Positions 21,573 to 38,759 of a DNA stretch of 64,000 nt are shown here, one piece after another (the first letter of the stretch is position 1; every line of letters starts with the position of its first letter). The translations under genes were made by a program, and so were the position numbers. Origin of the DNA: Candidatus Omnitrophota bacterium (GTDB taxonomy: Bacteria > Omnitrophota > Gorgyraeia > Duberdicusellales > 4484-171); NCBI GenBank assembly GCA_018818105.1, contig JAHISK010000055.1, forward strand, positions 4,781-68,780. Direction: 5' to 3'. A model generated the notes under the pieces. That model had not been told where the DNA came from. It ran no database searches and saw nothing but the letters and a program-made list of their open reading frames with translations.

Positions 21573-21599
21573 ATCCTGAATCAATTTTGTACCGAAAGA

Positions 21600-21920: not shown

Positions 21921-22065
21921 CAAATTCACCACCTAAAAAGATCCTCATATAACCATATCATAACCATGGTAGACGTCCCTAAAGGAGGGCCCTATAAAAA
22001 ATTTTAAAAATTTGAAAGAAAAACACCTTCTCATTCGTCTATTATATAAGAGGGTGAAATTCACA

Positions 22066-22617: not shown

Positions 22618-22632
22618 AATAGCCGGAATTAT
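22598..22632. terminator. Bidirectional terminator hairpin (CCGGCTATTT-TGAA-AAATAGCCGG) between the convergent RAYT and WD40 genes
   Basis: Perfect 10-bp stem. The minus-strand reading is followed by TTTTT. Confidence 0.5.
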
Positions 22633-22656: not shown

Positions 22657-23838
22657 TTAATTTGGCTGGAGATATTCAGATATTACGTTTTCTTTAGGAT
22701 TAGCTTCCTGAACCGCTTCCACTCCCGATTCAGATATTAAATCCCGCCAGTTATAAATAAATACTTTTCCTTCTTTTCCCGCTACGGCTAAGTATTTACC
22801 ATTATTAGAAAAAGCAAAATCAAATATCGGCTGACTTGAAAACACAGGTATCAATTTAATCAATTTCATTGTGGAAAGATCCCAAATACGTAAATCACCA
22901 AACTGACTCGATGTAACAAAAAACTTATCATCTCTAGAAAAACCTACTCTGGTCACCCATCCCTTATGAATATAATACAGTATCGGCTCATCTGATAGAA
23001 GCAATTTTCCTTTCTTGAAATCTAGGCGCCAAAGATTAGCAATATTATCCGCGCCGCCGGAAGCAAGAAACCCTCCCTTGGGAGAAAATTTGGCGTCTAA
23101 CACTATATGCATATGCGCCTCTAAGATTTTTTGCGTATCTTTAGTTCCTATAGGCCATATACGTATTTCTTTATCTTTACCTGAAGAAACTAAATATTTA
23201 TTATTTGGATGAAACGATACCGAATACACACTACCTTGATGTCCCGTTAAAGACGTGACATGATAAAACCCGCCATCTTTAGCCTCCCAAAGCTCAATTA
23301 AATTGTCTAAATTAGCTGACGCCAATATACTATTATCCGGCGAGAATTGAAGAGCATCTATCGTTCCTGTATAAGCGCGAATTGTTTTTACCAAACTTTT
23401 ACTGGCAATATCCCAAACTTTAATAAACTGGTCTGCCCCGCCGGAAGCAAGATACTTACCGTCGGATGAAAACGCGACAGCATAAGCTTCTTTAGCGTGT
23501 CCCGCTAAAGTAAAACCTAATGAAAACCGCTTCTTAGTTTCCCACAATTTTATGCCACCACTTCTATCGGCTGTAACTAAAAATTCATCATTTTTGGGAG
23601 AAAACGCTACTGCCAATACAGGAAAATCTAACGTTACTTCTCCTACATGAGGAATTTTTCGTAAAATCCCCGCTTCAGCCATTATTGTATCCAAGCTTTG
23701 TTTTCTAGCCGCGCCGACAACTGTGTCCCCAGAATCTTGAGAAAACACTCCTCTCTCTGAAAGCAAAAAAAAGAGACTGACCAATATACCGATAAAAACA
23801 AACAAAAATATGTTTTTTCTAATCTTATAAATTTCCAT
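22657..23838 (-). CDS. Secreted or membrane-anchored WD40 beta-propeller repeat protein
   Basis: N-terminal hydrophobic segment IFLFVFIGILVSLFFLL. Repeated WD motifs: LAGHAKEAYAVAFSSDGKYLASGGADQFIKVWD, LTGHQGSVYSVSFHP..., IRIWP. Confidence 0.75.
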   Translation of the reverse strand: MEIYKIRKNIFLFVFIGILVSLFFLLSERGVFSQDSGDTVVGAARKQSLDTIMAEAGILRKIPHVGEVTLDFPVLAVAFSPKNDEFLVTADRSGGIKLWETKKRFSLGFTLAGHAKEAYAVAFSSDGKYLASGGADQFIKVWDIASKSLVKTIRAYTGTIDALQFSPDNSILASANLDNLIELWEAKDGGFYHVTSLTGHQGSVYSVSFHPNNKYLVSSGKDKEIRIWPIGTKDTQKILEAHMHIVLDAKFSPKGGFLASGGADNIANLWRLDFKKGKLLLSDEPILYYIHKGWVTRVGFSRDDKFFVTSSQFGDLRIWDLSTMKLIKLIPVFSSQPIFDFAFSNNGKYLAVAGKEGKVFIYNWRDLISESGVEAVQEANPKENVISEYLQPN

Positions 23839-23865
23839 ACCACCCCTCCATCTTTTTCAATTCTT

Positions 23866-23900
23866 CCGTCTTCTGGTTTCTATACTCTGGTTTCTGATTA
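23866..23900. repeat. REP-like GAAACCAG-family repeat (CTGGTTTC orientation), single copy
   Basis: Sequence reads ttctggtttctatactctggtttctgatt. Confidence 0.5.
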
Positions 23901-23907
23901 CTCTATA

Positions 23908-25296
23908 TTATATCCCATACTCTTCCAATCCTAAAATTCTTAGTTTTCTTCCGTCTTCTACTTCCCCATGAGCCTCTAAAACTATAATATCCGATTCCTT
24001 TATGCCGCTTAAAATCTGAGTATAATCCGGACCCATATAACCTATTTTCACTTCTCTAAAGGTTATAGTTCCACTGCCTTCTCCTCGTTTAATTTTTTCT
24101 AAATCAATACCTTGATCTAATTTAACCACAGGAATAACAACAACATCCGGCGTCATTTGTAACAAGCTCATTGTTGGAACCATTATTTCTGAATCGAATT
24201 TTGCTAGAAGAATCGAAACCTGCGCGAACATCCCAGGAAGAAGAACTTTTTCTTCATCCACAATATTAACCTCGGCTTTCATTGTCCGGCTTCTTCCTTC
24301 AACAATAGGATAAAGATTACCTACTTTACCAATGAATTCTTTATTAGGATAAGCGTCTACTTTAATTACCGCTGTCTGTCCAATAGAAGCTTTATGAATA
24401 TCACGTTCCACAACACCAACCTCGGCATATACATCTTTAAGCCCTAACAAGTTTACTACAATATCCCGCGGTGTAAAAAATTCTCCCTCTTCAGCATCCC
24501 GCGATCCAACTATACCGTCTATCGGCGAGCGTAACTCTGTTTTTTCTAGCGAAGACGTGGCCATCTTAAATTCCTCTTGAGACACTCTTACCTTAGCCCG
24601 TTCACTTTCAATCCGTAGCTTAACTTCTTGTAATTTGCTTTCTATTATCGCTCCTTTGTCATATAATAAAGTATTTAACTCCAGCTCCTTTTCAGCTGCC
24701 CCTAACGCCGCGGTATCAGAGTCCAGTTTACCTTGAGCACGAGCTATCGCTAATAGTGAATCCTTCTTATTAAGTATCGCGATAATTTCTCCTTCTTTTA
24801 CGCGGTCGCCTTCTTTTACCATAATTTTATCAATAACCCCTTCTTTTTCAAACCTCATCTTAATTTCTTTCGAGCTTTTAATATCTCCCGTTACTGGTAA
24901 CGCGTTTTCATACCTTACCTTTTTCACGTTAAATACCCTCGCCGGCAAAGGCGGTTCCTGACTAACTTCTTCTCCCTGCTGCAACAGCTTACCCAAAATA
25001 CCCTGAATTTTTTCTTCTTTCGAGGCTTTTTCATCTTCATGATATTTTTTTTGTTCCTCTAGCATCTCCAGCAAAGAAATATCCTCTTCTCCCTCGCCAT
25101 TTGTTTCATCCGCTAAATTAGAGTCTTCTTCTACCACGTATCCCGAAGCATATTCTTCAGTGTCAACTGAAACAGATTCTATCTCTTTTCCCCTATTTAC
25201 TCGTTGAGCCCTTTGAGATGAATCCCATAAAACTAACACCGCAAAAATAACTATAATCACCACAAAAACAAAAAATAATTTCTTTTTCTCATTCAT
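23908..25296 (-). CDS. Efflux RND transporter periplasmic adaptor subunit (HlyD/MFP family)
   Basis: N-terminal TM helix, coiled-coil hairpin region and a beta-barrel/lipoyl-like region (...RSPIDGIVG..., ...LLPGMFAQV...). Confidence 0.7.
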   Translation of the reverse strand: MNEKKKLFFVFVVIIVIFAVLVLWDSSQRAQRVNRGKEIESVSVDTEEYASGYVVEEDSNLADETNGEGEEDISLLEMLEEQKKYHEDEKASKEEKIQGILGKLLQQGEEVSQEPPLPARVFNVKKVRYENALPVTGDIKSSKEIKMRFEKEGVIDKIMVKEGDRVKEGEIIAILNKKDSLLAIARAQGKLDSDTAALGAAEKELELNTLLYDKGAIIESKLQEVKLRIESERAKVRVSQEEFKMATSSLEKTELRSPIDGIVGSRDAEEGEFFTPRDIVVNLLGLKDVYAEVGVVERDIHKASIGQTAVIKVDAYPNKEFIGKVGNLYPIVEGRSRTMKAEVNIVDEEKVLLPGMFAQVSILLAKFDSEIMVPTMSLLQMTPDVVVIPVVKLDQGIDLEKIKRGEGSGTITFREVKIGYMGPDYTQILSGIKESDIIVLEAHGEVEDGRKLRILGLEEYGI

Positions 25297-25324
25297 AACT
25301 TTTCTCTCCCTTAAATATTACTGA

Positions 25325-27397
25325 TTAATCTTTCTTACAGATTTGTGTATTTTCAACAAACGGGAATAACCCTAAGGAATAAGATGTGGTATTATCTAAA
25401 CTCGCTAAAGAAATCAGATAACTTACCTTAGCACGAATTAATGCCAATCGCTTACGTATATAATCCGCCCTAGCCTTAACTATTTCTGAAAGATTGGCTT
25501 TTCCTATTTTAAATGCTTCTTTTTTTAAATCTAAATTCACACTGCTAAATTTAGCCTCAAATAAAGCAACCTCATATTCATCATAAGACTGCTGATACTC
25601 TAAAAAACTTTTTCTAGTATCAAAAACTACTTCCTGTTTATTCCTAGATAAATTACTCAAATTTTGAGAGTACGCGATATCGGCTTCTTTTTTCTGCACA
25701 TAATACTGTAACTTATCCATAATACCTAATTTTGCCGAATACGTTGTTGACGCGACTTTTCGAGAAATCTCTGTTACGTCTTTAGAACTTATTCTTTCAT
25801 CAGAACTGGATACTTCAAAAGAATTACCGCCAAACAGCCATGTAACAACGCCCATCATCTTCCATTCTTCACCTAAATTTAAATCTTGCTCAGAAAAAGC
25901 CTCACCTGAAGCGCCATAAGAAGTAACAACATCAAACCGGGGCGCGCTTTCACTACTGGCAATATCTCTAGCGTATTTCGCTGATTCTAAACTTATTTCC
26001 CACAACTTAACATCAGGTTTATTTTCTAATGCTAGCTTTATACACCGGTCAACATCAATATCTATTTCCCCCAACAATGGGATTTCCTTCTCTATAAAAG
26101 CAATCTTTTCTTCCGGCGGTAAATTCATAGCCGCGCGCAACTTTGCTTTTGACAATATAAGTTCATTATTAGTTTGTCCTATCATGTTTAAGGTTCGTTT
26201 ATTTTCTGCTTCTATTTCCATAAACTCAATTCGGGAAATAGCTTTGACTTCATAAATATCTTTAGCTAAATTAAAATCACGGCTGATATTTTCTTTAAAA
26301 GAAGATAACTCTTCCAACTCTTCATTCTTTCCTAAAATATTAACATAAGACCTAACAACCTCTAATTTCAATTCCTGCAAAGTCTTTTTATATTCATTCT
26401 CCGCTACTTCAAGATTTAATTTTTCTTTACGAAAAGTTTTAGCGGTTTTACCTCGATCATAAAGATTATGTCTTAATTGAATAGCATAAGCCTGGCTTTC
26501 ATAAGGATCGGTTATAGTATTGCCTTCGGAAACACTATACTGCATTTCCATTTTTGGAAATAAATTTCTCCTAGATTCATTTATTTTCAAACGCGCTAAG
26601 CCCAACTGCTGCCGCGCTACTTTCGCGGGATCAGACTTATCTAACGCTTCCTTGAATAATCTTTCAGCTTCCGTAACTACTCCTCTTATTTTACCCTCCT
26701 CTCCTATAAATTCTCTACCCACAGAAGTTTCGGATAACATCATTTCTGGTTGTCCACTGGGTTTACTCTTCCCAACCTTTGCGCTGATATCTACCTTATG
26801 TTCTCCCGAATCTATCATAGATTGATCATTCATCTTGATATCGCTTTTACACCTCGCTTTCTCAATTTCATCATCTATTAGCTTCTTTCTTCTACTTTCG
26901 TCTTTCCCTTCTATCTCTATCTCCCCTGCCCCTATTCTCTCTTCTCCATCTCCTCTCCTATCTCCTATCTCCTGCTTGCCCTCCGTAGCCTTGGCGAAGG
27001 AGGGTCTTCGGTCTTCAGTCTGACATCCCACAACTTCTATAGGCAACCTCATTGTTAACTTAGTTCCTTGGGAAGCCGGCAACGGTGGATATGGTGATAA
27101 CGCTTTGACCAAATTCTTAGCTTCCCAATCAAAATCGGGTACGCCGGAACTGTTTACCACTCTGACTAAATATATCTTGCCGCTAGATAAAATGCTAACC
27201 TCTAAAACAGTACGTATTTTACCCGCGGGAATAGTTGAGTGAGGAAACTGACTATATTGGATATGATTAGCTATTCTTCGCGAAACCGTAGATACATAAT
27301 CAGTTACATCATCTTCGGCAAAAGATAACGACATACCGCCTAAAAAAACAAAACCAGTAACCGCCAGAACAATAAAAGCATTCTTTATTTTTTTCAT
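25325..27397 (-). CDS. TolC-like outer membrane efflux factor with an N-terminal TonB C-terminal-like domain
   Basis: Signal peptide, then YLVRVVNSSGVPDFDWEAKNLVKALSPYPPLP (TonB_C-like), a low-complexity linker, then outer-membrane-factor coiled-coil/barrel repeats. Confidence 0.6.
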   Translation of the reverse strand: MKKIKNAFIVLAVTGFVFLGGMSLSFAEDDVTDYVSTVSRRIANHIQYSQFPHSTIPAGKIRTVLEVSILSSGKIYLVRVVNSSGVPDFDWEAKNLVKALSPYPPLPASQGTKLTMRLPIEVVGCQTEDRRPSFAKATEGKQEIGDRRGDGEERIGAGEIEIEGKDESRRKKLIDDEIEKARCKSDIKMNDQSMIDSGEHKVDISAKVGKSKPSGQPEMMLSETSVGREFIGEEGKIRGVVTEAERLFKEALDKSDPAKVARQQLGLARLKINESRRNLFPKMEMQYSVSEGNTITDPYESQAYAIQLRHNLYDRGKTAKTFRKEKLNLEVAENEYKKTLQELKLEVVRSYVNILGKNEELEELSSFKENISRDFNLAKDIYEVKAISRIEFMEIEAENKRTLNMIGQTNNELILSKAKLRAAMNLPPEEKIAFIEKEIPLLGEIDIDVDRCIKLALENKPDVKLWEISLESAKYARDIASSESAPRFDVVTSYGASGEAFSEQDLNLGEEWKMMGVVTWLFGGNSFEVSSSDERISSKDVTEISRKVASTTYSAKLGIMDKLQYYVQKKEADIAYSQNLSNLSRNKQEVVFDTRKSFLEYQQSYDEYEVALFEAKFSSVNLDLKKEAFKIGKANLSEIVKARADYIRKRLALIRAKVSYLISLASLDNTTSYSLGLFPFVENTQICKKD

Positions 27398-27453
27398 ATT
27401 ATAAATTTATTTTATCCAGATATCGCCCACATGTCAATCTCATCGACGTAAAA

Positions 27454-27485
27454 AGAAACCAGTAACCAGTTTACAGAAACCAGAA
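27454..27485. repeat. REP-like repeat AGAAACCAGTAACCAGTTTACAGAAACCAGAA; left arm of the inverted pair flanking 4HB gene 27497..27853
   Basis: Identical copy at 29112-29143. Reverse-complement partner at 27880-27914. Confidence 0.7.
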
Positions 27486-27496
27486 AATTGCCCAAA

Positions 27497-27853
27497 TCAA
27501 CTATTTAATAAACCTCTCAGCATACTTGTAATTTCTCTAACAGCTAACCTTAACTCTAAATAACATTGTTCCTCTATCAAATTCTGTCTTTTTAAAACAT
27601 TAAGAACAGACGCACATTCTCTTGCAGAATCAGAAGAAATATCAAAATATCTATTCTTTTCTTTTTTAGATTTCTTACCATTTCCCTCTGCTATATTATT
27701 AGCAATAGATAATGCCGCTCTAATAAAATTATTACCAATAGAATATTTATAATCGATTTTTAATCGTTTATATATTTCAAATACTTTGTCTATAAAAACT
27801 AACGTCTTCTGATATACTTTTAAATTTTCAAAATCAAATCTAAACTCTTCCAT
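27497..27853 (-). CDS. Four-helix-bundle protein (23S rRNA intervening-sequence protein family, TIGR02436-like)
   Basis: YQKTLVFIDKVFEIYKRL...AALSIANNIAEGNGK...ECASVLNVL is typical of this family. Confidence 0.75.
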   Translation of the reverse strand: MEEFRFDFENLKVYQKTLVFIDKVFEIYKRLKIDYKYSIGNNFIRAALSIANNIAEGNGKKSKKEKNRYFDISSDSARECASVLNVLKRQNLIEEQCYLELRLAVREITSMLRGLLNS

Positions 27854-27855
27854 TC

Positions 27856-29088
27856 CTATTTGCTCTCTCTTCTCTCTTGTTCTCTGGTTTCTGTACTCTG
27901 GTTTCTGGTTTCTAATAAAAAATATCTCCCCGGCCCAGAAGGGCCATGCGGCATTATAAATCCTTTATCCTGCATTTCCTTTAAATCACGCGCCGCTGTT
28001 GGAGTAGAAACATCAAATTTATCAGAATACTCTTTTCTTGTAATTTTTTGATTTTCTTTTAAATATTCTAATGTTTTTCTTTGTCGGTCATTTAAATCTA
28101 AGATTCGCGTAGCCTCATTTTTACTAACTTCAGCCACCGGAGATTTTTCTTCTAGCACAGGTTCATTTACTGATTCCTTACTCTGAAGTTGTTTTCTTAA
28201 AGATTCTATTTCCCTATTTAAATCCTCAATCTTTTTTGACAATTCTTCATTTTTTTTAATCATTTCCTCATCTACCGACTCTTGGATAGGTTGCTCTTCT
28301 CTTTCTTTAATCTGCCGCTGTAATTCATCATTTCTACCCACAGCTTCCTTTAACTTAGCCGCTACTTGCTCAAGCTTTACCGCCTGTTCCTTTATTTTCT
28401 GTTTGCTCTGCTCCGGATCCGGCGCTTGCGCTGCCTGAGCTTGGTAATCTTTAATTTTTTCGTCTTTATTTTTTAACTCTTCTCTTACTTTATCCAGCTG
28501 ACTCTGGCTTTCCTGAATTTTTGCCTGCATTAAGTCCTCTTTCTTAATAAGTAACTCTTTTTCTTCTTTTAATTTCGCTGACGCGATCTGCGCTTCTTTC
28601 GTTCTTATCTCTAACTCGCTCAATGCTTTACGTAACTCTTCCTCTTTAGTTTTTAACTTGTCGACGGTAGTTTTAAGCTCAGTTTGTAGAGAACCTAATT
28701 TAGAATCAAATCCTGCTTTATTAGCGTCTATTTTATTTAATTGATCCTGAAGCTGGATAACTTTAGCTTCATGAGAATTCTTCTCAACTGTTACATCCTG
28801 AAGTTGATTCCTTAAATTATCTACATTCAAATTAGCATCGTTACATGCTTGATCTTTTTCCTGTAGCTGCTTCTTTAGTATTTCTAATTCCTCGGATAAA
28901 GAATTTATTTGCTCTCCAGCCGCTGATTCCTGTTCATTATAAGATTCTTTCGTTTCTTCTCGAGCATGTTTTATATTATCTTCCCGCGAAGACTCCCTTT
29001 CCTCAGCAGATTTCTCTTCGGGGAAAAAAATATAGTACAACATAACAATCGCGCCCGCCCCAACTAATAATACAAGAATAAAAAACAA
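27856..29088 (-). CDS. Membrane-anchored long coiled-coil protein with C-terminal winged-helix DNA-binding-like domain
   Basis: N-terminal TM helix MFFILVLLVGAGAIVMLYYIFF, then about 300 aa of K/E/Q-rich coiled coil. C-terminus reads ITRKEYSDKFDVSTPTAARDLKEMQDKGFI...GRYFLL. The 3' end of the ORF reads through a GAAACCAG repeat. Confidence 0.55.
   Translation of the reverse strand: MFFILVLLVGAGAIVMLYYIFFPEEKSAEERESSREDNIKHAREETKESYNEQESAAGEQINSLSEELEILKKQLQEKDQACNDANLNVDNLRNQLQDVTVEKNSHEAKVIQLQDQLNKIDANKAGFDSKLGSLQTELKTTVDKLKTKEEELRKALSELEIRTKEAQIASAKLKEEKELLIKKEDLMQAKIQESQSQLDKVREELKNKDEKIKDYQAQAAQAPDPEQSKQKIKEQAVKLEQVAAKLKEAVGRNDELQRQIKEREEQPIQESVDEEMIKKNEELSKKIEDLNREIESLRKQLQSKESVNEPVLEEKSPVAEVSKNEATRILDLNDRQRKTLEYLKENQKITRKEYSDKFDVSTPTAARDLKEMQDKGFIMPHGPSGPGRYFLLETRNQSTETREQERRESK
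27880..27914. repeat. REP-like repeat (CTGGTTTC orientation); right arm of the inverted pair flanking 4HB gene 27497..27853
   Basis: Sequence reads ttctctggtttctgtactctggtttctggtttctaa, the reverse complement of the 27454-27485 family. Confidence 0.7.
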
Positions 29089-29111
29089 AATATTTTTCCT
29101 TTTCTTTTTAT

Positions 29112-29208
29112 AGAAACCAGTAACCAGTTTACAGAAACCAGAATTAAATTTTTATTAATTTCCTCTGGTTATTCTTTCTTCTTTTACATTCTCTGGTTTC
29201 TGGTTACT
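29112..29208. repeat. REPIN-like doublet: GAAACCAG-family repeat (29112-29143) and its inverted partner (29191-29208) separated by about 47 nt
   Basis: agaaaccagtaaccagtttacagaaaccagaa ... ctctggtttctggttact. Confidence 0.65.
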
Positions 29209-29274
29209 TAACTACATTCTACCCAACAACTTACACCTTATCAATCAAAAAATATATTTTATTATTATTTTTAA

Positions 29275-32200
29275 TCAAAGAGATCGAGGCTTAATGAAAG
29301 AAAATATCTTTTTTATATCCTCTGCCATCATATAAATAGATGGAATAATAAAAAGCGTTAAAAAAGTAGAAGTTATCATACCCCCTACAACTGTTACTGC
29401 CAACGGCCGCCAAAGAGAAGAAGTTCCTCCTCTTTGAAAAATTAACGGAATCATTGTTAAAATGGTAGTTAAACTTGTCATAAGAATCGGGCGCAGCCGC
29501 CAAACGACTGCCTTAATTATAGATTCTCGCGCTCCAAAAAAACTATTATTTTTTAAACCTTTATACGCGCCTACGCCGCGCAGCCGGTTAATATAATCTA
29601 TCAGAATAATAGCATTGTTTACTACTATCCCTATAAGAATAACCGAGCCTATATATACGCCTAAACCTATAGGTTCTCCTGATAAACGCAACCCTATTCC
29701 TACCCCAATTATAGCCATGGGCACAGAACTTAACACAATAAATGGTTGAGTATATGATTCAAACACAGAAGCTAATACAAGATATACTAAAAATAGCGCT
29801 AAAAACATCGCCTGAGTTAACTCTCGTTGATTACGTATCATTTTATCGTAATCACCGCCAAAACTATAATGATAATCTTTAGGAAAATCCATTCCGGCAA
29901 GCGCCTCATTTACTAAATCAGCGGATTCACTCAATGACAGCTTACCTGAATCAGCGCTTACCTGAACCATTCTTTCTTTATTTTTACGCCAAATTTCCGC
30001 GGGACCAACGCCAGATTTCACCTCAGCTATCTGCTGTAAATATACCATAGTATTATCCTTTCCTCTCAATGAAAGGTTATAAATATCAGTTAACGTGTCT
30101 CTAAACCCTTTTTCCAACCGCGCTATAGTTTCAATTTGACGCGTCCCTTCGCCTTCAAAGCTGCCAATTCCTCCCATCGCCGCGGAAAGTTTTTTAGTCT
30201 CCTGATGAACTAACTCGTTTCCGTAATTTTTTATCGTGGGTAAATTCTTAACTTCCGAACTCTGCGTCTTAAGCATTACTCCTTCGGCGGATGAAGCATG
30301 AAACCGTGTAGCAATCAACCCACGCAATTTAGCGTGCAAAATATTAGAAACATCCAGCATTGTAAGACCGTATAAAGCTAATTTATTTCTATCAAACAAA
30401 ATATGAACTTCCGGCCGGCCGCTGCGCATCCTTAACTTAACATCATTAAACTTACCCGTACTCTGAATTAATCCTCCTATTTGCTGGGCTAAACTTTTCA
30501 GCAATTCATAATCCGGGCCAAAAACTTCAACCATTATTTCCTTTCTACCAACAGATTCCGGCTGCTGCGCGTATACAAACGCCGGGTCCATATCTTTTGT
30601 TTTCTGTCGTATCTCTTCAATAATCTCATCAACCCCGCGCTTAGAGGAAGAAGGTTTTAACTCAACATAAATTTGTGAAGACCACCCTTTAATTCTTGAA
30701 GTGTGATTTTTTATTTCCGGGATACTATCTAAAATCGCCTCAACTTTCGTTACTACATCGTCGGAAATCTCTATCTTTGTACCTGACGGCATCTGAACGT
30801 ACACAGTAAACCTACTCTGTTCGGCTATCCCTATAAACTCACGTCCCAACCGAGACATCTGAATAAATACTATTATTAGTAAAATAACTGTTCCCGCGAT
30901 AAATAGATATCTTTTTCCTAACACAAAATTTATGCATTTCTTATATCCTCCTACTAAATCATTAAAACGATATCGTTCTATAATTTTGTAAATTTTGTGA
31001 AACCAAATTTTACTGTTTTTTCTCTCATCATTATTAGGTTCAATGACTTGTAATAATTCTTTATCCTCTCTTTTATTTTTTCTTCCCAAATTACCCTTCT
31101 TTGTTGATATTCGAGAAGCCAACAAAGGAACCAGTGTAAAAGAAAAAAATAAAGACGCGAATAACGAGAACACTACCGTTAACGCCAACCCACTGTACAA
31201 ACGTTTAATTTCTTTATTCACAAAAAATAAAGGTAAAAACACAACAATAGTTGTAAGCGTTGAAGCGGCTATCGCGATTAATACTTCGCTGGAACCTTCT
31301 TCAGCGGTTGTTTTTAAATCCTCTGATTCGCTCTGTTTATCAGCTTCCCTTAATTCCTCTCTTTTTTTAAAAATGTTCTCAAGAACAACAATGGAACTAT
31401 CCACTAATATTCCTATCCCTAAAGCTATTCCGCTTAAAGTAACAACATTAATACTAATTCCGCTAAGATACATTAAAGAAAAGGCCGTTATTACTGAAAA
31501 AGGAATAGTTAAAGCGACGACTAAAGTATATTTGAAGTTACGTAAAAAAAGCCATAGCACAATCATCGTTAAAAACGCGCCGATATATAAAGCGTGACGC
31601 ACGGTCGTAATTGCCTGTTTAATGTAATCAGCATGATTAAAATATGGGCGCGTATTTACATCTTGGGGCAAACTTTTCTTCAATTTAGCTAACTCTTTTT
31701 CTACTTCTTCAACAACTTTAATAGTGTTGGCTCCCGACGCTTTTTGAATATACAATGATACTGACGGTTCAGAATTCACTCTTGCCAAAGCATGAGGATC
31801 TAAATAAGAAACACTCACCTTAGCCAAATCTCTTATTCTAACCATATGAGCTTCCCCGCCGGGATTAATTGGCAAATCTTTTATGTCATCTAAAGAAACA
31901 AACTGTCCTACAGTTCTTACTAAATATGTTGTTGAACCGCGTTTTACGTCTCCCGCGACTAAATTCAAATTATTTACGTTTAGCGCCTGGATAACATCAT
32001 CTATGGTAATTCCGTGAGACCGTAACGCGACTTCGTTTAACTCAACAAAAATTTTCTCTTCCCTTCCTCCACCAACCTCAACTTTCGCCACGCCCTCAAT
32101 ACGAGAAAAACGGCTTTTCATTTTGCTTTCGGCTAACCGACGCAACTCCTCAACCGTTCTTATAGGACTGGTTACACCCAAAATAACTACCGGTACCTGT

Positions 32201-32604
32201 GAATACTCATATTTAGCTATAACGGGGCGCTCAACTTCTTTAGGCAAACTCTCCTGCACCTGAGAAAAATGCTCCCTTACTTCTACTACCGCGTAATCTA
32301 AATTAATTTCCGGTTTAAAATAAAGGATAATTCGGCACTCGCCTTCTTCTGAAATTGTAATAATATCTTCTAACCCATCGATAACTGATAACGCGTCTTC
32401 TAAAGGCTTTGCTATTCTATCCTCTACTTCCTGAGGGCTAACCCCTCCTCTAATACGTAAATCAACAGAGATATTTCCAATTTCTACATTAGGTTTCAAT
32501 TCTACCGGCAGGCGAAAAAGAGCAAAGAGCCCTAAAAGAAGAAAAATCAAAAACACCATGGAAATGGCAATTGGTCTACGTATAGATAATTTAGGTAGAT
32601 TCAT
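29275..32604 (-). CDS. RND efflux transporter permease subunit (AcrB/MdtB/C family), copy 2
   Basis: 1109 aa, 12-TM RND architecture. N-terminus MNLPKLSIRRPIAISMVFLIFLLLG... Confidence 0.8.
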   Translation of the reverse strand: MNLPKLSIRRPIAISMVFLIFLLLGLFALFRLPVELKPNVEIGNISVDLRIRGGVSPQEVEDRIAKPLEDALSVIDGLEDIITISEEGECRIILYFKPEINLDYAVVEVREHFSQVQESLPKEVERPVIAKYEYSQVPVVILGVTSPIRTVEELRRLAESKMKSRFSRIEGVAKVEVGGGREEKIFVELNEVALRSHGITIDDVIQALNVNNLNLVAGDVKRGSTTYLVRTVGQFVSLDDIKDLPINPGGEAHMVRIRDLAKVSVSYLDPHALARVNSEPSVSLYIQKASGANTIKVVEEVEKELAKLKKSLPQDVNTRPYFNHADYIKQAITTVRHALYIGAFLTMIVLWLFLRNFKYTLVVALTIPFSVITAFSLMYLSGISINVVTLSGIALGIGILVDSSIVVLENIFKKREELREADKQSESEDLKTTAEEGSSEVLIAIAASTLTTIVVFLPLFFVNKEIKRLYSGLALTVVFSLFASLFFSFTLVPLLASRISTKKGNLGRKNKREDKELLQVIEPNNDERKNSKIWFHKIYKIIERYRFNDLVGGYKKCINFVLGKRYLFIAGTVILLIIVFIQMSRLGREFIGIAEQSRFTVYVQMPSGTKIEISDDVVTKVEAILDSIPEIKNHTSRIKGWSSQIYVELKPSSSKRGVDEIIEEIRQKTKDMDPAFVYAQQPESVGRKEIMVEVFGPDYELLKSLAQQIGGLIQSTGKFNDVKLRMRSGRPEVHILFDRNKLALYGLTMLDVSNILHAKLRGLIATRFHASSAEGVMLKTQSSEVKNLPTIKNYGNELVHQETKKLSAAMGGIGSFEGEGTRQIETIARLEKGFRDTLTDIYNLSLRGKDNTMVYLQQIAEVKSGVGPAEIWRKNKERMVQVSADSGKLSLSESADLVNEALAGMDFPKDYHYSFGGDYDKMIRNQRELTQAMFLALFLVYLVLASVFESYTQPFIVLSSVPMAIIGVGIGLRLSGEPIGLGVYIGSVILIGIVVNNAIILIDYINRLRGVGAYKGLKNNSFFGARESIIKAVVWRLRPILMTSLTTILTMIPLIFQRGGTSSLWRPLAVTVVGGMITSTFLTLFIIPSIYMMAEDIKKIFSFIKPRSL

Positions 32605-32616
32605 AATTATTTAAAA

Positions 32617-32645
32617 GGGTCAAGGGGCAGGGGGCAAGGGGCAAG
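32617..32645. repeat. GC-rich TTGMCCC/GGGKCAA-family repeat; left arm of the inverted pair flanking 4HB gene 32652..33041
   Basis: GGGTCAAGGGGCAGGGGGCAAGGGGCAAG; about 25/28 complementary to 33059-33087. Confidence 0.7.
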
Positions 32646-32651
32646 AAAAAT

Positions 32652-33041
32652 TTAAGATTTCAAAGACTTAATTAACCCCTTTAATAACCGGCCTACTTCT
32701 TGACGTCTATCATTAATCATTTTGTATATTTCAATATTTATATAACCTAAATCTTTAGAAAATAAAAAATACGTTTCCACTTCACCTAATGACCCTTTTG
32801 CTATCATCAAAAACTGAATATATTCTTTACGATACTGCCTTTCATACCCCTCTGCTATATTAGCAACAACCGATATAGCGGCCCTTCTCAATTGAGAAAC
32901 TAAACCATACTGTTCACTCCTAGGATAATCACGCGTAATTTTATATACTTCTAACGCCAATTCATATGCTTTCTTCCATACAATTAACTTCTTAAAACCC
33001 TTCTCCATTTCTTTCTCTCTATATTTTTCTCTCTTAACCAT
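32652..33041 (-). CDS. Four-helix-bundle protein (23S rRNA intervening-sequence protein family), second copy
   Basis: KKLIVWKKAYELALEVYKITRDYP...QLRRAAISVVANIAEGYERQ...MIAKGSLGEVETY. AAGGAAGAAG ribosome-binding site upstream. Confidence 0.8.
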   Translation of the reverse strand: MVKREKYREKEMEKGFKKLIVWKKAYELALEVYKITRDYPRSEQYGLVSQLRRAAISVVANIAEGYERQYRKEYIQFLMIAKGSLGEVETYFLFSKDLGYINIEIYKMINDRRQEVGRLLKGLIKSLKS

Positions 33042-36000
33042 CTCTATATTCTTCTTCCTTGACCCTTGCCCCCTGACCCTTGCCCCTATTTATAAATGCT
33101 GTAACAGAATCATACAGCACAGGGACGAACAAAAGCGTTAGGAACGTGGACGAAAGCAAACCTCCAATTACAGTAATAGCCATAGGAGCCCGTAATTCAG
33201 AACCTTCACCAATACCTATAGCAAGAGGTATCATTCCTAAGACAGTGGTGAAAGTCGTCATAAGAATAGGACGTAGCCGATGCTGACTGGCTTCTAAAAT
33301 AACTTCTTTTAAAGGCAAATTCTTTTTCTTTAAATGGTTCATATAATCCACTAAAACTATCCCGTTATTTACAACAATCCCGCCCAACATAATAGCGCCC
33401 AAAAGAGCGACTACATTCAAAGAAGTAGAAGTTAACTTCAACGCGACGCTTATGCCTATAAGAGAAAGAGGAACTGTAAACATAATAATAAACGGCTGCC
33501 ATAACGACTCAAATTGCGCCGCCATAATCATATAAATTAAAAGAATCGCTAATAAAAAAGCAAACTTCATGCTGTTAAATGATTCCCGCATACGAACGCT
33601 CTCACCAGAAAGGCCTACGTTATATCCTAACGGAATATTTAATTTCTCTACTATACCGGTTAACTGCGTATTAATTTCGCTAACACTGCGTCCATATAAA
33701 TTAGCATTAACAGATATTGTACGGCGCTGGTCTATCCGTTTAATTTCTGTGGGGCCTCTGCCTTTCGCAAGACGGGCAACCTGATAAAGAGGAACCATAA
33801 CATTCCTATACGCCGTCCTAATACCTAAAGATCTGATTCGGGATAAATTCTTTCTATCTTCTTCCTGCAAACGTACTCTAATATCTATAGGATGCGTTAC
33901 ATCCTCCTTAAACTTAGTAAAAACTCTTCCCTTAATGGCAGTATGCGCGGTTAACGCGATATCCTGAGTAGATAAACCTAACAAAGAAGCTTGGTCTTTA
34001 AGTATATATATTTTTGTTTCGGGAGAAGAAGGGACCCTATCATCTTCTATACTATAAACGCCTTTTATCGAAGATAGTTCTTTTTTTATCTGATCAGCTA
34101 CATCGCCCATCTGTAAAAGGTTCTCCCCTTTTATTTCAATTTGAATAGGTTTATCCTCAAACGCTTCCTTCAAAACACTTTCCTGCAAAACATACTCTAA
34201 CTGAGCGCCGATTAAATGTTTTTCTTTCATAATATCCCGCAAACGTTGAATAACGTCTTGCGTGGAAAACAACGAAACAGCTTCCTTTTCCTTTAATTCT
34301 TTATAGGAATACAGCTTCACCATAATTTCGCCCTCATAAGAAGCCAAAGTTTGCACCGCTTTTTCCGTGGGGTTATCTTTATCCGAACCTACTTTTATAC
34401 TAACATCTTTAACTTCTTTTATTTCATTGAGAAGAACTTCCTCCACCATACGCACAGCGTTATCAGTAACTTCTAAACTTGTTCCCGGCTCCATGGTAAG
34501 TTTTATTATAAACTGCCGCTGATCAAGCCGAGGCAAAAATTCGCTGGGCACAGTTTTTAAAATCACCAAGCTTAAAAGAAATAATCCTATAACAACAAAT
34601 ACAAGAATCGCTTTATTATCTAAAGTTTTTGATAAAAGACGGCGGTATAAATTATCAATTCCATTAAAAAGGAGATCAACTTTTGCTTGGCCGTCTTTGC
34701 TTTCTTTAATTCCACCGCCTAAAGAAGAAAGCATCGGCACCAACATCAACGCTATCAATAACGACGAAACCAAAGAAAAGGTTACCGTAAACGCCAATTG
34801 CTTAAAAAGCTGTCCGGCTATACCGGAAAGAAACATCATCGGAAAAAATACGCACACTGTTGTGAGAGTGGAAGAGATAATTGCTCCTTTCATCTGAAAA
34901 GACGCCTGAGACACAAGCGATAACGCTTCTTGCTTTGAGAGTTTTTTGTCCTGTTTTGATCTTTCCTGCTGCCGGCGAAAAATATTTTCAAGAACAACAA
35001 TAGAGTTATCCACTAACATTCCTACTCCTAATGCCAACCCTCCTAAAGAAATCATGTTCAAAGAAATATTCCTGGAAAACATCAATATAAACACACCCAT
35101 AATTGATATAGGAATAGCTGTAGCAATAATTAAAGAAATCTTAAGGTTCCTTAAAAAAACGAGTAAAACTAGAAAAGCCAAAACCCCGCCGCCTATGGCA
35201 GCGTTCCTAACTCCTTTTATCGAATTCGCGACATACACCGACTCATCATAAGCAATATCCAACTTTACGTCTAAAGATGGATTTTTATTCATTCGATACA
35301 CTTCTTCTTTAACCCTCTCACAAACGTCTATTACATTAGCGCCAGACTGTCTCTTAATTGAAATAGATATGTTTTCAACACCATTATGGCGGGAAATACT
35401 TTCTTTTTCTTTAGCTACATTTTTTACCTGAGCGATATCACTTAGCCGAACTAACCGGGCAGTTTTCTCCTGAAGCTCATCCTTAATGCCAAGTTGGCGT
35501 TCTCTCTGCTCTTCTTCAGTTTCAGGAACATCCACTAAAACTGTTAACTCACTGATTTCATCTAACGTCTCAAACTCACCTATTGTTCTGACCAAATGCT
35601 CATAAAAACTTCCCTTTATCGACCCCGCGGGATAATTAATATTTGATTTTTTTATTACCGAGCCTAAATCCAACAAAGAAAGGCCTGAAGCCTGTAGCCG
35701 TGACTGATCAACCTCTATTAGAATCTCCCGCCCAACTCCTCCTGTAATAACCGCGGCGGCAACACCTTTTAACTTTTCTAAATCATCTTTCATTTGCCGC
35801 TCACAAACTTCCCTCAATTCTAACAAAGACTCTTTTCCCGTCACGCTTAACACAATAACCGGTTTCTCAAAGGGATTATACTTCATAACAATCGGTTCAC
35901 CGCAATCCCTCGGAAGGCGTTCCTTAACTAAATCTATTTTTTCACGCACCTCCAAAGCGGCTAAATCCATGTTCGTTCCCCAGTCAAAACGCACCATTAC

Positions 36001-36291
36001 CATAGATAACGCTTCCCGGGAAATTGAGCTAATCTGTTTAACCCCGCTTATCGCCCCGCCCGATTCTTCTAAAATTTGAGATATTAAACTTTCAACTTCT
36101 TCCGGGGCCGCCCCTTCATAGGGTGTCAAAATTGTTATTTGAGGATACGATATGGAAGGAAATAATTCCTGAGAAAGGCGGGACAAAGAAACCATTCCCA
36201 TAACTACAACCGCTAAAAAAATCATAGCCGTAGTAACAGGGCGCATTATGAAGATACTAATCTTTTCCAGTTTCTTTCTTCGGTCTTTCAT
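33034..36291 (-). CDS. RND efflux transporter permease subunit (AcrB family), copy 1. The start is probably ATG at 36291; the track start 36333 reads through a repeat
   Basis: MRPVTTAMIFLAVVVMGMVSLSRL...PYEGAAPEEVE; 12-TM RND fold. Confidence 0.8.
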   Translation of the reverse strand: MKDRRKKLEKISIFIMRPVTTAMIFLAVVVMGMVSLSRLSQELFPSISYPQITILTPYEGAAPEEVESLISQILEESGGAISGVKQISSISREALSMVMVRFDWGTNMDLAALEVREKIDLVKERLPRDCGEPIVMKYNPFEKPVIVLSVTGKESLLELREVCERQMKDDLEKLKGVAAAVITGGVGREILIEVDQSRLQASGLSLLDLGSVIKKSNINYPAGSIKGSFYEHLVRTIGEFETLDEISELTVLVDVPETEEEQRERQLGIKDELQEKTARLVRLSDIAQVKNVAKEKESISRHNGVENISISIKRQSGANVIDVCERVKEEVYRMNKNPSLDVKLDIAYDESVYVANSIKGVRNAAIGGGVLAFLVLLVFLRNLKISLIIATAIPISIMGVFILMFSRNISLNMISLGGLALGVGMLVDNSIVVLENIFRRQQERSKQDKKLSKQEALSLVSQASFQMKGAIISSTLTTVCVFFPMMFLSGIAGQLFKQLAFTVTFSLVSSLLIALMLVPMLSSLGGGIKESKDGQAKVDLLFNGIDNLYRRLLSKTLDNKAILVFVVIGLFLLSLVILKTVPSEFLPRLDQRQFIIKLTMEPGTSLEVTDNAVRMVEEVLLNEIKEVKDVSIKVGSDKDNPTEKAVQTLASYEGEIMVKLYSYKELKEKEAVSLFSTQDVIQRLRDIMKEKHLIGAQLEYVLQESVLKEAFEDKPIQIEIKGENLLQMGDVADQIKKELSSIKGVYSIEDDRVPSSPETKIYILKDQASLLGLSTQDIALTAHTAIKGRVFTKFKEDVTHPIDIRVRLQEEDRKNLSRIRSLGIRTAYRNVMVPLYQVARLAKGRGPTEIKRIDQRRTISVNANLYGRSVSEINTQLTGIVEKLNIPLGYNVGLSGESVRMRESFNSMKFAFLLAILLIYMIMAAQFESLWQPFIIMFTVPLSLIGISVALKLTSTSLNVVALLGAIMLGGIVVNNGIVLVDYMNHLKKKNLPLKEVILEASQHRLRPILMTTFTTVLGMIPLAIGIGEGSELRAPMAITVIGGLLSSTFLTLLFVPVLYDSVTAFINRGKGQGARVKEEEYRDG
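33059..33087. repeat. GC-rich TTGMCCC-family repeat; right arm of the inverted pair flanking 4HB gene 32652..33041
   Basis: TTGACCCTTGCCCCCTGACCCTTGCCCCT. Confidence 0.7.
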
Positions 36292-36304
36292 AAAAATATT
36301 TTGT

Positions 36305-36662
36305 AGGGTCAAGGGGCAGGGGTCATGGGTCAAAGAATTAGAAAGCTAACCAATCCTTTCACCAAAAACCTAATTTTATATCTAAAAACGAAACTAAATA
36401 CCCCTTATTACAACTTAATATCTATTTTAAAGATAAAAACAAATATTGAAAGATATTTTTATCTCTTACCCCATTTTCTTATCTTGATTTATCTTTTTCT
36501 ATCTCCCCTCTTCATCTATGGACTATGGTCTATCGACTATGGACGAATTATTCTCCCTTCTCCCCTTTCTCTAACTTTGCTTTCTCCTTAACCTAAAACT
36601 TAAAACCATTTTTCCTTGCCCCTTGACCCTTCTTCTCTTAATTCTTCCTTGACCCATGACCC
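36305..36662. repeat. Inverted pair of TTGMCCC-family repeats (36305-36334 and 36612-36662) enclosing about 270 bp with no convincing gene
   Basis: GGGTCAAGGGGCAGGGGTCATGGGTCAAAG ... CCTTGCCCCTTGACCC...CCTTGACCCATGACCCAT. The interior contains ctatggac x3. Confidence 0.55.
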
Positions 36663-36780
36663 ATATCATTTACCATTTATCATTTATCATTTTAAATTAT
36701 TATATATTTTTCCTCTTAAGCAAATGCTAATTTTAAAATGTTAATTGGTAAATTTAAAATTTCTATCCCTTGACCCTCTT
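36647..36780. repeat. About 150-bp dispersed repeat element, copy A, with (CATTTAC/T) x3 tract; it abuts the stop codon of gene 36781..38631 and lies upstream of the RND locus
   Basis: More than 90% identical to 44555-44710 outside the heptad tract. Both ends carry TTGACCC boxes. Confidence 0.8.
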
Positions 36781-38631
36781 TTACATCTGCTCCACCATCT
36801 CCACATACTCCTGCCCCCAATCTTTCACTAAATCACCAAAATTATCCGAAATAAAACTTTTTAATTCGTCAGGGTCTTCATTAATAGGAATGCTTACTTC
36901 ACCAAAACTTTGATTATCCACTATCTTTTCTAGAGCTTGAACTTTTAAACTTAACATCCTAAGATAAACTTTACCTAATTCTGTATCTAAATCAATTAAA
37001 TCTTGCTGATACGTTTCTTGAAACTTATCAAACATATCTAAAACTTTACCATTTTCACCCCACTCTAAATAATTCTGAGCTTGACTACGCATAAAATTAG
37101 CGTCCGCGGCAGCAGCATCAACCTCTGACGCGGTTATTGTGAAATCTATATCATCTACAAAAGTAATCTCAATCAAATAAATATCTTCTTTATTCAAAGC
37201 GGCCGCGGATAATCCATAACTTGCTCTAGCAAACATTTCAACTCCGGCTTTATTCATTGTTTTATATTCCTGAATAACATCATAAATCGTACCGGCAACA
37301 TCCTCAGTTGTATGGAAAAAATCCCGTAACTGCTCAACATTCATATCCTGAACTTGATAAAAACATACATACCTTTCCTGCAAAAGACTATCCCCTATCT
37401 CAAACACCACTTTATCTCCGTCTTTATACATATCATTAATCCAATCCTGATTAAATTCATTAACTTCCAAACCTATGGAATCCATCCCTCCCTCAACAGT
37501 ATATGATATATATTTACCTGAATAAACCGATTCCCCGGTAGCTGAATCAAGACTAAGCTCCCAAGCCTTCACATGTAAACTTCCTTTCCACTCATGAACC
37601 CAACTGGCATATTCAGTACCATCATCATCAATAACCCCCTGTTCAGCTATGCCGAACGCATTATGTTTTTCATAAGTTCCTTCAAAATAATTTATCACTT
37701 TAACTAAATGATGATTCTCCCAAAGATAGGTTATCTTTAACGCCCCAAACCTATCCCGCGTCTCATACATTTCGCTTCCCCACTTATCAAACTTGGTAAC
37801 ATCACCGTCAACCATTTCATACTGAAACATTTTTCCGTCTTTTAAAATAGGATTATCCTCCTCATCAACAACTAAAATACTTATCTTCTCAATTCTCAAT
37901 AAACTATCCCCTTCCTGCCGCCAATAAGCTACTAATTCTCCATCCTTAGACCCTTTTCTTTCTTCTATGGGACTGCCGTTATTATAGCGTTTCCAAACTT
38001 GAGTGGCAAGATTATGCTCCCAATATCCTGTTCCCGACTGATCATATTCATAGATATGCGTAATATTATGATGGCTATCATTCCTTTCCATAAGATTATT
38101 TCTCCAGTACCGTTCATATTCTAAAACATCACCCCATTCATTCGTCACCCTACATTCAATTACTTTACTACCATTCTGTTCCCCTACCGCATACCAATCA
38201 TATTTCCTTATCGCGAGTTTCTCATCAAGACGCCATCCATTAGCCTCAAATGTTTCCGCGTCCATCTTAAACGCTTTTTTACCGCCTCTAAACCGAATAA
38301 CATCTCCATTCCGTTCAATCCGCAACTCAGGTTTACCATTAAAATAGAAAGTTTTGTTACCATATTTATCAACAATTATTGAAGGATATTTTGACGCGAT
38401 TTGAGGAATTTGAACGTTTAAAGGATAAGCCACTTCAGCATAATTACTTATTTGTTTCCACTGCGGTATTATACGGGGATCACCGGGATCAGTATGAAAA
38501 GCGGACCCGGGAAGAACCATCATGTCTTGAGCAAAACTTAGTAAAGGAAAAATAACGATAAAGACAAAAAGTATTCCTTTAAAATACTTATTGAAATTAA
38601 TTCCTTTTATAATTTTTTCTATATGATTCAT
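36781..38631 (-). CDS. Secreted protein of unknown function (616 aa from ATG 38631; signal peptide ILFVFIVIFPLLSFA)
   Basis: AAGGAAGAAG ribosome-binding site before ATG 38631; the track start 38781 overlaps the upstream gene. W/Y/E-rich beta-type sequence, no motif recognised. Confidence 0.6.
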   Translation of the reverse strand: MNHIEKIIKGINFNKYFKGILFVFIVIFPLLSFAQDMMVLPGSAFHTDPGDPRIIPQWKQISNYAEVAYPLNVQIPQIASKYPSIIVDKYGNKTFYFNGKPELRIERNGDVIRFRGGKKAFKMDAETFEANGWRLDEKLAIRKYDWYAVGEQNGSKVIECRVTNEWGDVLEYERYWRNNLMERNDSHHNITHIYEYDQSGTGYWEHNLATQVWKRYNNGSPIEERKGSKDGELVAYWRQEGDSLLRIEKISILVVDEEDNPILKDGKMFQYEMVDGDVTKFDKWGSEMYETRDRFGALKITYLWENHHLVKVINYFEGTYEKHNAFGIAEQGVIDDDGTEYASWVHEWKGSLHVKAWELSLDSATGESVYSGKYISYTVEGGMDSIGLEVNEFNQDWINDMYKDGDKVVFEIGDSLLQERYVCFYQVQDMNVEQLRDFFHTTEDVAGTIYDVIQEYKTMNKAGVEMFARASYGLSAAALNKEDIYLIEITFVDDIDFTITASEVDAAAADANFMRSQAQNYLEWGENGKVLDMFDKFQETYQQDLIDLDTELGKVYLRMLSLKVQALEKIVDNQSFGEVSIPINEDPDELKSFISDNFGDLVKDWGQEYVEMVEQM

Positions 38632-38702: not shown

Positions 38703-38740
38703 TGGAAGGGAAAAAGAAAAAGAGGGGGATAGCCCCCTCT
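38703..38740 (-). terminator. Intrinsic terminator (AGAGGGGG-AUAG-CCCCCUCU, then U-rich tract) after gene 38760..41789
   Basis: Perfect 8-bp GC-rich stem. The minus-strand reading is followed by TTTTTCTTTTT. Confidence 0.6.
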
Positions 38741-38759
38741 TTTTCTAATGTTTTCTTTA

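Follow-up and report, generated by a model that had tools for sequence, protein, structure and literature searches.

A tripartite RND exporter variant conserved in Omnitrophota, with a TonB/TolA-like domain on its outer-membrane factor and co-encoded WD40 and winged-helix proteins

A 64,000-nucleotide stretch of contig JAHISK010000055.1 from a Candidatus Omnitrophota bacterium (assembly GCA_018818105.1, positions 4,781 to 68,780 of the forward strand), referred to here as the window, carries a minus-strand run of eight consecutive open reading frames (ORFs) between 22.6 and 36.3 kb, separated by short gaps and built around two permeases of the resistance-nodulation-division (RND) type. The cluster is real and represents a variant of tripartite RND exporters that is conserved in Omnitrophota. 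We lean towards reading it as a lineage-specific exporter that combines a docking domain on its outer-membrane factor (OMF), a WD40 partner protein and a winged helix-turn-helix (wHTH) domain held at the membrane. A preliminary description of this DNA had proposed an envelope-spanning RND machine with added periplasmic or regulatory parts, a proposal supported by the conservation of the WD40, wHTH and TonB_C-bearing OMF genes together with the pump genes. Pfam and NCBIfam searches of each ORF also bore out the order, strand and named domains that had been given for all eight. The genes and two associated signals are listed below (aa, amino acids; TM, transmembrane; 4HB, four-helix bundle; MFP, membrane fusion protein).

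33034-36291, minus strand: RND1 permease, 1085 aa, ACR_tran E 2e-239; start corrected (the listed ORF spans 33034-36333)
32652-33041, minus strand: 4HBa, 23S_rRNA_IVP (PF05635) E 8e-39, 132.6 bits (cut-off 33.8)
29275-32604, minus strand: RND2 permease, 1109 aa, ACR_tran E 2e-222
27856-29088, minus strand: TM/coiled-coil/wHTH protein, HTH_24 at aa 332-378
27497-27853, minus strand: 4HBb, 23S_rRNA_IVP (PF05635) E 8e-26, 90.7 bits (cut-off 33.8)
25325-27397, minus strand: OMF with a TonB/TolA-like N-terminal domain, 690 aa, two OEP stretches, E 1e-30
23908-25296, minus strand: MFP (periplasmic adaptor), TIGR01730 and HlyD_D23
22657-23838, minus strand: WD40 propeller, WD40 172 bits (cut-off 27)
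22605-22626, minus strand: terminator-like hairpin with a T-run, 30 nt past the WD40 stop codon
27409-27437, minus strand: promoter-like site TTGACA-17-TAAAAT, 11/12 consensus matches, just 5' of the OMF gene

The hairpin following the WD40 gene is the sole strong terminator-like hairpin found within the operon region and probably marks the end of the operon. The site upstream of the OMF gene is a possible internal promoter, judged solely by its match to the consensus.

Conservation of the cluster was established by comparison with related loci, which are denoted here by L numbers. In L001, which lies in a complete 1.5-Mb genome, and in L002 and L003, the genes for RND1, RND2, the TM-coiled-coil-wHTH protein, the TonB_C-OMF, the MFP and the WD40 protein follow one another in identical order (OMFs 52-62% identical). 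A permuted order, comprising an OMF with one or two TonB_C domains, the MFP, the WD40 protein, an RND1 fused to the wHTH domain (RND1::wHTH) and RND2, is found in L010, L012, L019, L051 and L052. Since synteny keeps the WD40 gene and the wHTH with the pump in loci whose OMFs are down to 25-30% identical, the WD40 and coiled-coil genes are not the unrelated insertions that the preliminary description had allowed for. A literature search on TonB-domain/OMF fusions or an Omnitrophota efflux system returned nothing relevant, and efflux, RND, TolC, WD40 and riboswitches did not come up in the Omnitrophota papers that were searched for these terms.

The OMF consists of a signal peptide (approximately aa 1-26), a TonB/TolA-like domain (aa 28-125, nt 27023-27316), a disordered, charged linker (aa 126-231) and TolC-like OEP repeats (aa 250-669). 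Its channel portion is recognized by OEP (PF02321) in two stretches with 107.3 bits (cut-off 22) and scores 63 against the 225 required for TIGR01844 and 25 against the 210 required for TIGR01845; by these scores the protein is a divergent outer-membrane factor. The preliminary description had likened its N-terminus to a TonB C-terminal domain, and three profiles confirm the likeness: TonB_2 (PF13103) at aa 33-116 with 36.1 bits against a cut-off of 22, TonB_C (PF03544) at aa 63-120 with 25.8 bits against 24.6, and TIGR01352 (tonB_Cterm) with 29.6 against 27.1. The segment that the preliminary description quoted (YLVRVVNSSGVPDFDW...) falls, in alignment A4, on the SSG...D core of the TonB_C motif. 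Modeled alone, from 30 homologous domain copies, the N-domain was predicted with a mean local distance difference test score (pLDDT) of 92.5 and a helix-strand-strand-helix-strand topology. This isolated model, rather than that of the full-length OMF, was used for the fold search, in which the best 24 Foldseek matches in the PDB were all HasB/TonB C-terminal domains or TolA domain III (TolA-III), including 6s3w, a TolA-III structure with a bound TolB N-terminal peptide. The OMF also gave a separate match to HasB. The full-length AlphaFold2 model is mediocre (pLDDT 64), with aa 30-124 well predicted and aa 126-231 disordered. Among seven close OMFs the N-domain is conserved and the linker behind it is variable and of low complexity.

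An identical OMF is on record from a Candidatus Omnitrophota metagenome-assembled genome under the annotation 'TonB family protein'. The protein is a channel with a TonB-type domain and not a TonB, and the label is misleading, because the domain follows an apparently cleavable signal peptide and precedes an OMF, with neither a TM anchor nor a proline-rich rod. The features of a TonB energy transducer are absent from it: there is no inner-membrane anchor and no proline-rich spacer, and the domain is not C-terminal. The N-domain shares profiles and fold with the C-terminal domain of TonB and HasB and with TolA-III, yet it forms the N-terminal part of an outer-membrane channel that is secreted, whereas the domains of TonB and TolA are C-terminal, anchored in the inner membrane and energized by ExbBD or TolQR. 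Unlike in TonB, moreover, the YP motif is degenerate in the window clade. Because the TM anchor and proline-rich rod are absent and the YP motif is degenerate, the domain cannot transduce the proton-motive force in the known way.

The fusion had been presented as atypical for a TolC-like protein; it is real, but it is not unique to this locus and recurs in Omnitrophota. A profile built from the OMF alignment was searched against 1.8 billion cluster representatives, and the best 70 matches were scanned with Pfam. Among these nearest representatives, the N-terminal module is TonB_C in 22/70, TPR in 11/70 and AMIN in 4/70, and a local hidden Markov model detected one to three tandem copies of the N-domain in 29/155 representatives. 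All members bearing organism names belong to Omnitrophota. From this distribution, the OMF lineage appears routinely to carry exchangeable periplasmic N-terminal modules. An assembly or frameshift artefact was considered as a source of the fusion and rejected, as the ORF is continuous in 29 cluster representatives. In a sister clade (OMFs at L005 9170-11311, L007 466-2622 and L008 3301-5445), the OMF bears a different N-terminal extension of about 270 aa, in which neither AMIN nor any other Pfam domain was found at E 0.01; these clusters keep the RND1::wHTH fusion and lack the WD40 gene. A scan of a genome collection with the OMF profile, a method dependent on short conserved patterns, yielded six loci.

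The MFP exceeds the TIGR01730 cut-off (179.6 against 94.9), matches HlyD_D23 at E 2e-26, possesses an N-terminal anchor and an acidic linker, and weakly matches CzcB-type adaptors. The WD40 gene lies directly after the MFP gene in L001-L003, L010, L012, L019, L051 and L052. Its product matches many whole-propeller families besides WD40 (PF00400), and its true orthologues form a narrow group (P0009-P0015, 46-54% identity), beyond which lie generic WD40 proteins. A signal peptide is present in all orthologues, including those of L010, L012, L019 and L051, and the propeller is predicted to be a Sec-exported, periplasmic protein. Between 5 and 15 residues past the signal peptide, orthologues down to 25% identity share a strand-like motif (acidic-x-hydrophobic-hydrophobic-x-G/I-hydrophobic-x-x-KQ(S/P)), represented by DTVVGAARKQS in the window, IEIGLLLKQP in L010 and LELGIRMSQS in L012. 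We take this motif to recall, in position and character, the TonB boxes and the TolA-binding N-terminus of TolB, and on that basis we hypothesize that the propeller docks to the OMF domain; by this analogy the two would be in direct contact. The arrangement resembles the TolA-III/TolB pair in combining a TolA-type domain with a periplasmic beta-propeller whose mature N-terminus bears a conserved strand-like motif. In contrast to TolB, which combines the TolB N-domain with PD40 repeats, the propeller is a canonical WD40 protein (neither TolB_N nor PD40 occurs among the 25 matches listed of 54), and the resemblance is functional only. The cluster also differs from Tol-Pal in having no TolQR or Pal genes, and the pairing here is hypothetical.

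The coiled-coil/wHTH protein comprises an N-terminal TM anchor, a coiled coil of approximately 300 aa that gives SMC-like matches, and a C-terminal wHTH domain (aa 327-393) recognized by HTH_24 (PF13412; 30.0 against 21.9), HTH_DeoR (PF08220; 27.1 against 21) and HTH_11. Both the TM segment and the wHTH are retained in the orthologues of L001-L003. RND1 in the window has a short C-terminus without a wHTH, whereas in L010, L012, L015 and L016 the RND1 proteins end in tails that match the wHTH of the window at 50-57% identity. A survey of approximately 75 metagenome loci, for which the wHTH was the seed and the reduced alignment A6 replaced the overly diverse alignment A5, found the domain fused to the RND1 C-terminal tail in at least 46 non-redundant loci; with such a seed, the frequency of RND1 genes without a wHTH is not derivable. 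The C-terminus of an RND permease is cytoplasmic, as in AcrB. Its fusion to this terminus in most relatives places the wHTH in the cytoplasm and links it functionally to the pump. The preliminary description had counted the membrane-anchored protein as an extra component of the machine. It is indeed kept with the pump, but its placement is corrected here: apart from the N-terminal anchor, the protein is almost certainly cytoplasmic. The wHTH presumably binds DNA as a membrane-tethered module, and in the window clade the coiled coil may substitute for the oligomerization provided elsewhere by the RND trimer. A winged helix permanently held at the inner membrane is reminiscent of one-component regulators of the ToxR/CadC type. 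Unlike in those regulators, however, the tether is an RND permease in most relatives and a TM anchor with about 300 aa of coiled coil in the window, and the domain finds its best PDB match not in OmpR/ToxR domains but in 8cil, the wHTH at the C-terminus of a Fic family protein.

Both permeases match ACR_tran (PF00873) over their full length, with 797.6 bits for RND1 and 741.6 bits for RND2 (cut-off 28). They are paralogues, approximately 30% identical, and each has its own orthologues in every locus; those of RND1 are 71-76% identical in L001-L003 and 44-50% in distant loci. RND1 actually begins at Met15 of its listed ORF, at position 36291, and the L001 orthologue begins at the equivalent Met; the 14-codon N-terminal extension of the listed ORF is spurious, since a hairpin arm at 36305-36337 covers those codons. 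Of 58 non-redundant RND1 ORFs, 50 have an RND2-type gene directly 3', in many cases overlapping or after a very short spacer. Among the other eight, three are RND1 pieces split by frameshifts, one is a fragment with a separate wHTH ORF behind it, and four lack a labelled downstream gene. The closest solved relative of RND1 in the PDB is MdtB (9lyq_B, E 1e-99), and those of RND2 are ZneA (4k0e) and MdtB. The cut-offs of the named families were missed by both: TIGR00915 (HAE1) with 450 and 403 against 940, TIGR00914 (HME) with 477 and 420 against 701, and the MdtB and MdtC equivalogs with approximately 383 against 1584 and 1774. The permeases are therefore not assignable to any named RND subfamily. 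Judged by eye against the AcrB motifs, most pattern-matching orthologues carry VDN or VDS in TM4, VNN in TM10 and RxRP in TM11.

A heteromeric pump of the MdtBC type had been suggested for this pair. The tandem paralogous permeases and the single adaptor stand, as does their retention in relatives; a mixed RND1/RND2 trimer would be the natural reading of an anciently duplicated, co-kept pair. The cluster thus resembles MdtABC of E. coli and MuxABC-OpmB of P. aeruginosa in its adjacent paralogous permease genes and single adaptor, but differs in gene order, in encoding within the operon an OMF with an extra domain, and in adding the wHTH and WD40 proteins. Because both permeases score under the HAE1, HME and MdtB/C cut-offs, the MdtBC analogy is structural only.

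Upstream of the giant gene that lies beyond the operon terminator, the window contains a riboswitch for cyclic di-GMP (c-di-GMP), and equivalent arrangements occur in related loci. These elements are as follows.

3-21515, minus strand: giant gene of more than 7,171 codons, running off the window
21543-21572, minus strand: terminator-like expression platform, directly 5' of the giant gene
21558-21738, minus strand: c-di-GMP-I riboswitch aptamer (RF01051, 54.7 bits against 35)
L002 16341-16510: c-di-GMP-I-type riboswitch of the giant gene
L010 9263-9365: c-di-GMP-I-type riboswitch of the giant gene
L012 3457-3556: c-di-GMP-I-type riboswitch of the giant gene
L014 6897-7053: c-di-GMP-I-type riboswitch of the giant gene
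L016 4145-4231: c-di-GMP-I-type riboswitch of the giant gene

No Pfam domain was found in the 7,171 aa of the giant protein that fall within the window. A homologous giant gene stands beside the cluster in seven distinct loci (the window, L002, L010, L012, L014, L016 and L051), the L002 product being 21,878 aa long, and a c-di-GMP-I-type riboswitch (RF01051/RF03167) lies directly 5' of six of the seven; the leader in L051 is covered only in part. No giant gene lies within 10 kb of the cluster in L001 (the complete genome) or L003. At L031, a different giant ORF adjoins a cluster whose OMF lacks TonB_C. ORFs at the edges of L021, L023, L024, L031, L063 and L081 were considered as members of the giant-gene family and rejected, as they are not homologous to it. 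In L003, L015 and L051, further riboswitches precede other unannotated genes near the cluster.

In the exporter reading towards which we lean, RND1 and RND2 would most likely form a mixed inner-membrane trimer in the manner of MdtB/MdtC, with the single MFP bridging the permeases to the TolC-like OMF. The TonB/TolA-like domain, on its disordered tether of approximately 100 residues, would most likely act as a periplasmic docking or anchoring module. Its preferred partner would be the co-encoded WD40 propeller, a putative periplasmic scaffold whose N-terminal strand may join the beta-sheet of the domain by strand addition, in the way that the TonB box joins TonB and the N-terminus of TolB joins TolA-III. 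Held at the cytoplasmic face of the pump, the wHTH would most likely regulate, from its place at the membrane, the transcription of this system or of neighbouring genes. The pairing of propeller and OMF domain draws on co-occurrence: a WD40 gene accompanies 7 of the 14 distinct loci with a TonB_C-OMF and none of the 10 distinct loci with a TonB_C-less OMF (Fisher p = 0.019, uncorrected for shared ancestry, the WD40-positive loci amounting to about two or three clades). That limit on the p value is one of several points that weigh against the exporter reading. No WD40 gene lies near the TonB_C-OMF in L014-L016, L021, L023, L024 and L029, and because half of the distinct TonB_C-OMF loci have none nearby, the domain must also work without the propeller. 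Tandem TonB_C copies and exchanges with AMIN or TPR fit generic binding to the wall or a scaffold at least as well as a specific one-to-one partner. As regards the pump, the permeases fall below the family cut-offs given above, and both appear to carry Asn at the position of the TM10 proton-relay Lys of AcrB (by eye, against the AcrB motifs). The metagenome survey, being seeded with the wHTH, is silent on RND1 genes without it.

Half of the TonB_C-OMF loci being without a WD40 gene, and the modules being interchangeable with AMIN and TPR, anchoring to the wall or a scaffold is a serious rival, which we hold possible but doubtful. It takes the OMF N-domain as a structural anchor to peptidoglycan or another envelope layer and the WD40 protein as a separate scaffold in the periplasm, not bound to it. 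In secretins and amidases, AMIN is a module that binds peptidoglycan; the nearest OMF relatives have AMIN, TPR or between one and three TonB_C copies in the same position, and the long disordered tether would suit reach to a wall layer. Yet such an anchor leaves aside that the propeller never accompanies a TonB_C-less OMF and that its strand motif is conserved where TonB boxes and the TolA box of TolB lie; moreover, the affinity of TonB-type domains for peptidoglycan is weak and a matter of debate. We regard as unlikely a further reading, in which the cluster is machinery to export, anchor or display the neighbouring, c-di-GMP-controlled giant surface protein. A loose analogy is offered by the TolC-like LapE, which holds the giant adhesin LapA under c-di-GMP control, and the adjacency of giant genes in seven distinct loci, six with the riboswitch, is consistent with the idea, as is the different giant ORF at L031. 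We know of no RND permease that moves proteins, however, and Pfam and NCBIfam detected no ABC or type I secretion component in the cluster. Giant genes are missing from the surrounding 10 kb in L001 and L003 and giant ORFs from the vicinity of many RND1::wHTH loci, and the adjacency could stem from shared regulation or a lifestyle island. Also on the side of this reading, a 2026 preprint describes two 'TonB-domain' genes flanking Omnitrophota giant genes, without recognizing them for what they are. Very improbable, finally, is an ordinary multidrug or metal efflux operon, with the WD40, coiled-coil/wHTH and 4HB genes as neighbours or insertions that have no relation to it. Insertion does apply to the 4HB genes, the best solved relative of RND2 is the metal pump ZneA and the MFP is weakly CzcB-like, but synteny contradicts this account: the WD40 gene and the wHTH are kept with the pump across deep divergence and changes in gene order, and most relatives have the wHTH and RND1 in a single fused protein.

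Taken as an exporter with a docking domain, a WD40 partner and a membrane-held wHTH, the system falls outside the textbook picture of RND pumps in three respects: TonB/TolA domains on a channel, a DNA-binding domain fused or tethered to a permease, and a dedicated periplasmic WD40 protein. These features are unlikely to be dispensable because they are kept across many Omnitrophota lineages with small genomes (1.5 Mb for the one complete genome). The link between giant genes and riboswitches is the most interesting lead of the locus and points in two directions: c-di-GMP may control transcription of the giant genes, and the envelope complex may work with giant proteins. Carried furthest, the cluster and the adjacent riboswitch-controlled giant gene would constitute one envelope unit in which the pump-like complex, docked by its TonB/TolA-like domain, is used for export, anchoring or turnover of the giant surface protein, or of material set free in the attack of that protein on a host cell, with the wHTH coupling the state of the machine to giant-gene transcription. 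We consider this a long shot; if true, RND/TolC hardware would be put to a new use, and there would be a first point of entry into the deployment of giant proteins by Omnitrophota.

The two 4HB genes had been counted among the components of the locus, a view that does not hold. They lie within hairpin elements, which are listed here with a related element that encloses no 4HB ORF.

32606-33097, minus strand: hairpin element with 4HBa, 43-nt arms 32606-32648 and 33055-33097, 81% complementary
27454-27913, minus strand: hairpin element with 4HBb, 34-nt arms 27454-27487 and 27880-27913, 88% complementary
36305-36662, minus strand: hairpin element without a 4HB ORF, 5' of RND1, arms 36305-36337 and 36614-36662, 94% complementary

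The arms of the third element belong to the same family as those flanking 4HBa, and an extra arm at 29105-29142, which encloses no 4HB ORF, belongs to the family of the 4HBb element. In the RNA fold of the 4HBa element the two arms pair with each other (z = -3.56), and the arms on the upstream side extend over the final codons of RND1 and the wHTH gene. L001 and L002 lack 4HB elements and have gaps of 4 and -16 nt between RND1 and RND2; L003 has an unlike palindromic element at this junction. Because they are missing in relatives and are enclosed by hairpins like those of 23S rRNA intervening sequences, the 4HB genes are taken to be cargo of hairpin elements inserted at gene junctions and not pump components. 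The junctions with elements appear to be insertion hot spots. In L003, other palindromic repeats (GTGTCATTGCGAGGAGCGAACGAAG...) were observed at 4346-4756 and 9451-10001, at the junctions that hold 4HB elements in the window. No further 4HB or Y1 copies were found elsewhere in the window.

At approximately 450-490 nt, with long complementary arms around a PF05635 ORF, the elements resemble the 23S rRNA intervening sequences of Leptospira and Coxiella, but differ in lying between protein genes of an operon, with arms that overlap the 3' ends of RND1 and the wHTH gene. The intervening element in Coxiella 23S rRNA measures 428 nt and is called selfish (PMC4990558). Here, the hairpin arms might serve as RNase III sites that segment the polycistronic mRNA. 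These observations suggest that rRNA-intervening-sequence-like elements can colonize, and perhaps segment, polycistronic transcripts. A borderline Y1_Tnp (IS200-like) ORF is located on the plus strand at 22012-22617, between the operon terminator and the riboswitch (23.4 bits against 23), and contains a perfect palindrome with a 13-bp stem at 22320-22349. This ORF could encode a RAYT-like mobilizer of the hairpin elements.

Several further genes neighbour the cluster in the window or in its relatives.

36781-38631, minus strand: up1, secreted, without a known domain, a recurrent neighbour of the cluster
L010 9433-9756: gene for a small CxxC protein
L012 3682-3966: gene for a small CxxC protein
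L014 7122-7424: gene for a small CxxC protein
L016 4337-4543: gene for a small CxxC protein

Homologues of up1 adjoin the cluster in L001, L002, L010, L019, L020 and L051; Pfam, NCBIfam and PDB searches gave no match for the protein, and its listed TTG start is probably placed too far upstream. The small proteins are basic, 68-143 aa long and Zn-ribbon-like (CxxC...C...C), and their conserved genes lie next to the OMF gene, upstream of the riboswitch and giant gene. They are also present in L051, L052, L058, L060 and L079, have no Pfam match, and have no homologue in the window. The region beyond up1 contains up2 (38760-41906), a large secreted protein without a Pfam or NCBIfam match, and a strong bidirectional hairpin lies between up2 and up1 at 38715-38746.

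The window has a G+C content of approximately 37% and a GC skew that is strongly negative (-0.1 to -0.4) over all 64 kb, and its minus strand carries nearly all of its long genes. Housekeeping or toxin-antitoxin genes occupy 42-64 kb; the locus is therefore placed in a chromosomal context, and its interpretation as a mobile island was rejected. On the plus strand, 5' of the up2 gene, a nucleotidyltransferase, a small ORF and a PIN_5 ribonuclease at 42869-44545 form a toxin-antitoxin-like trio.

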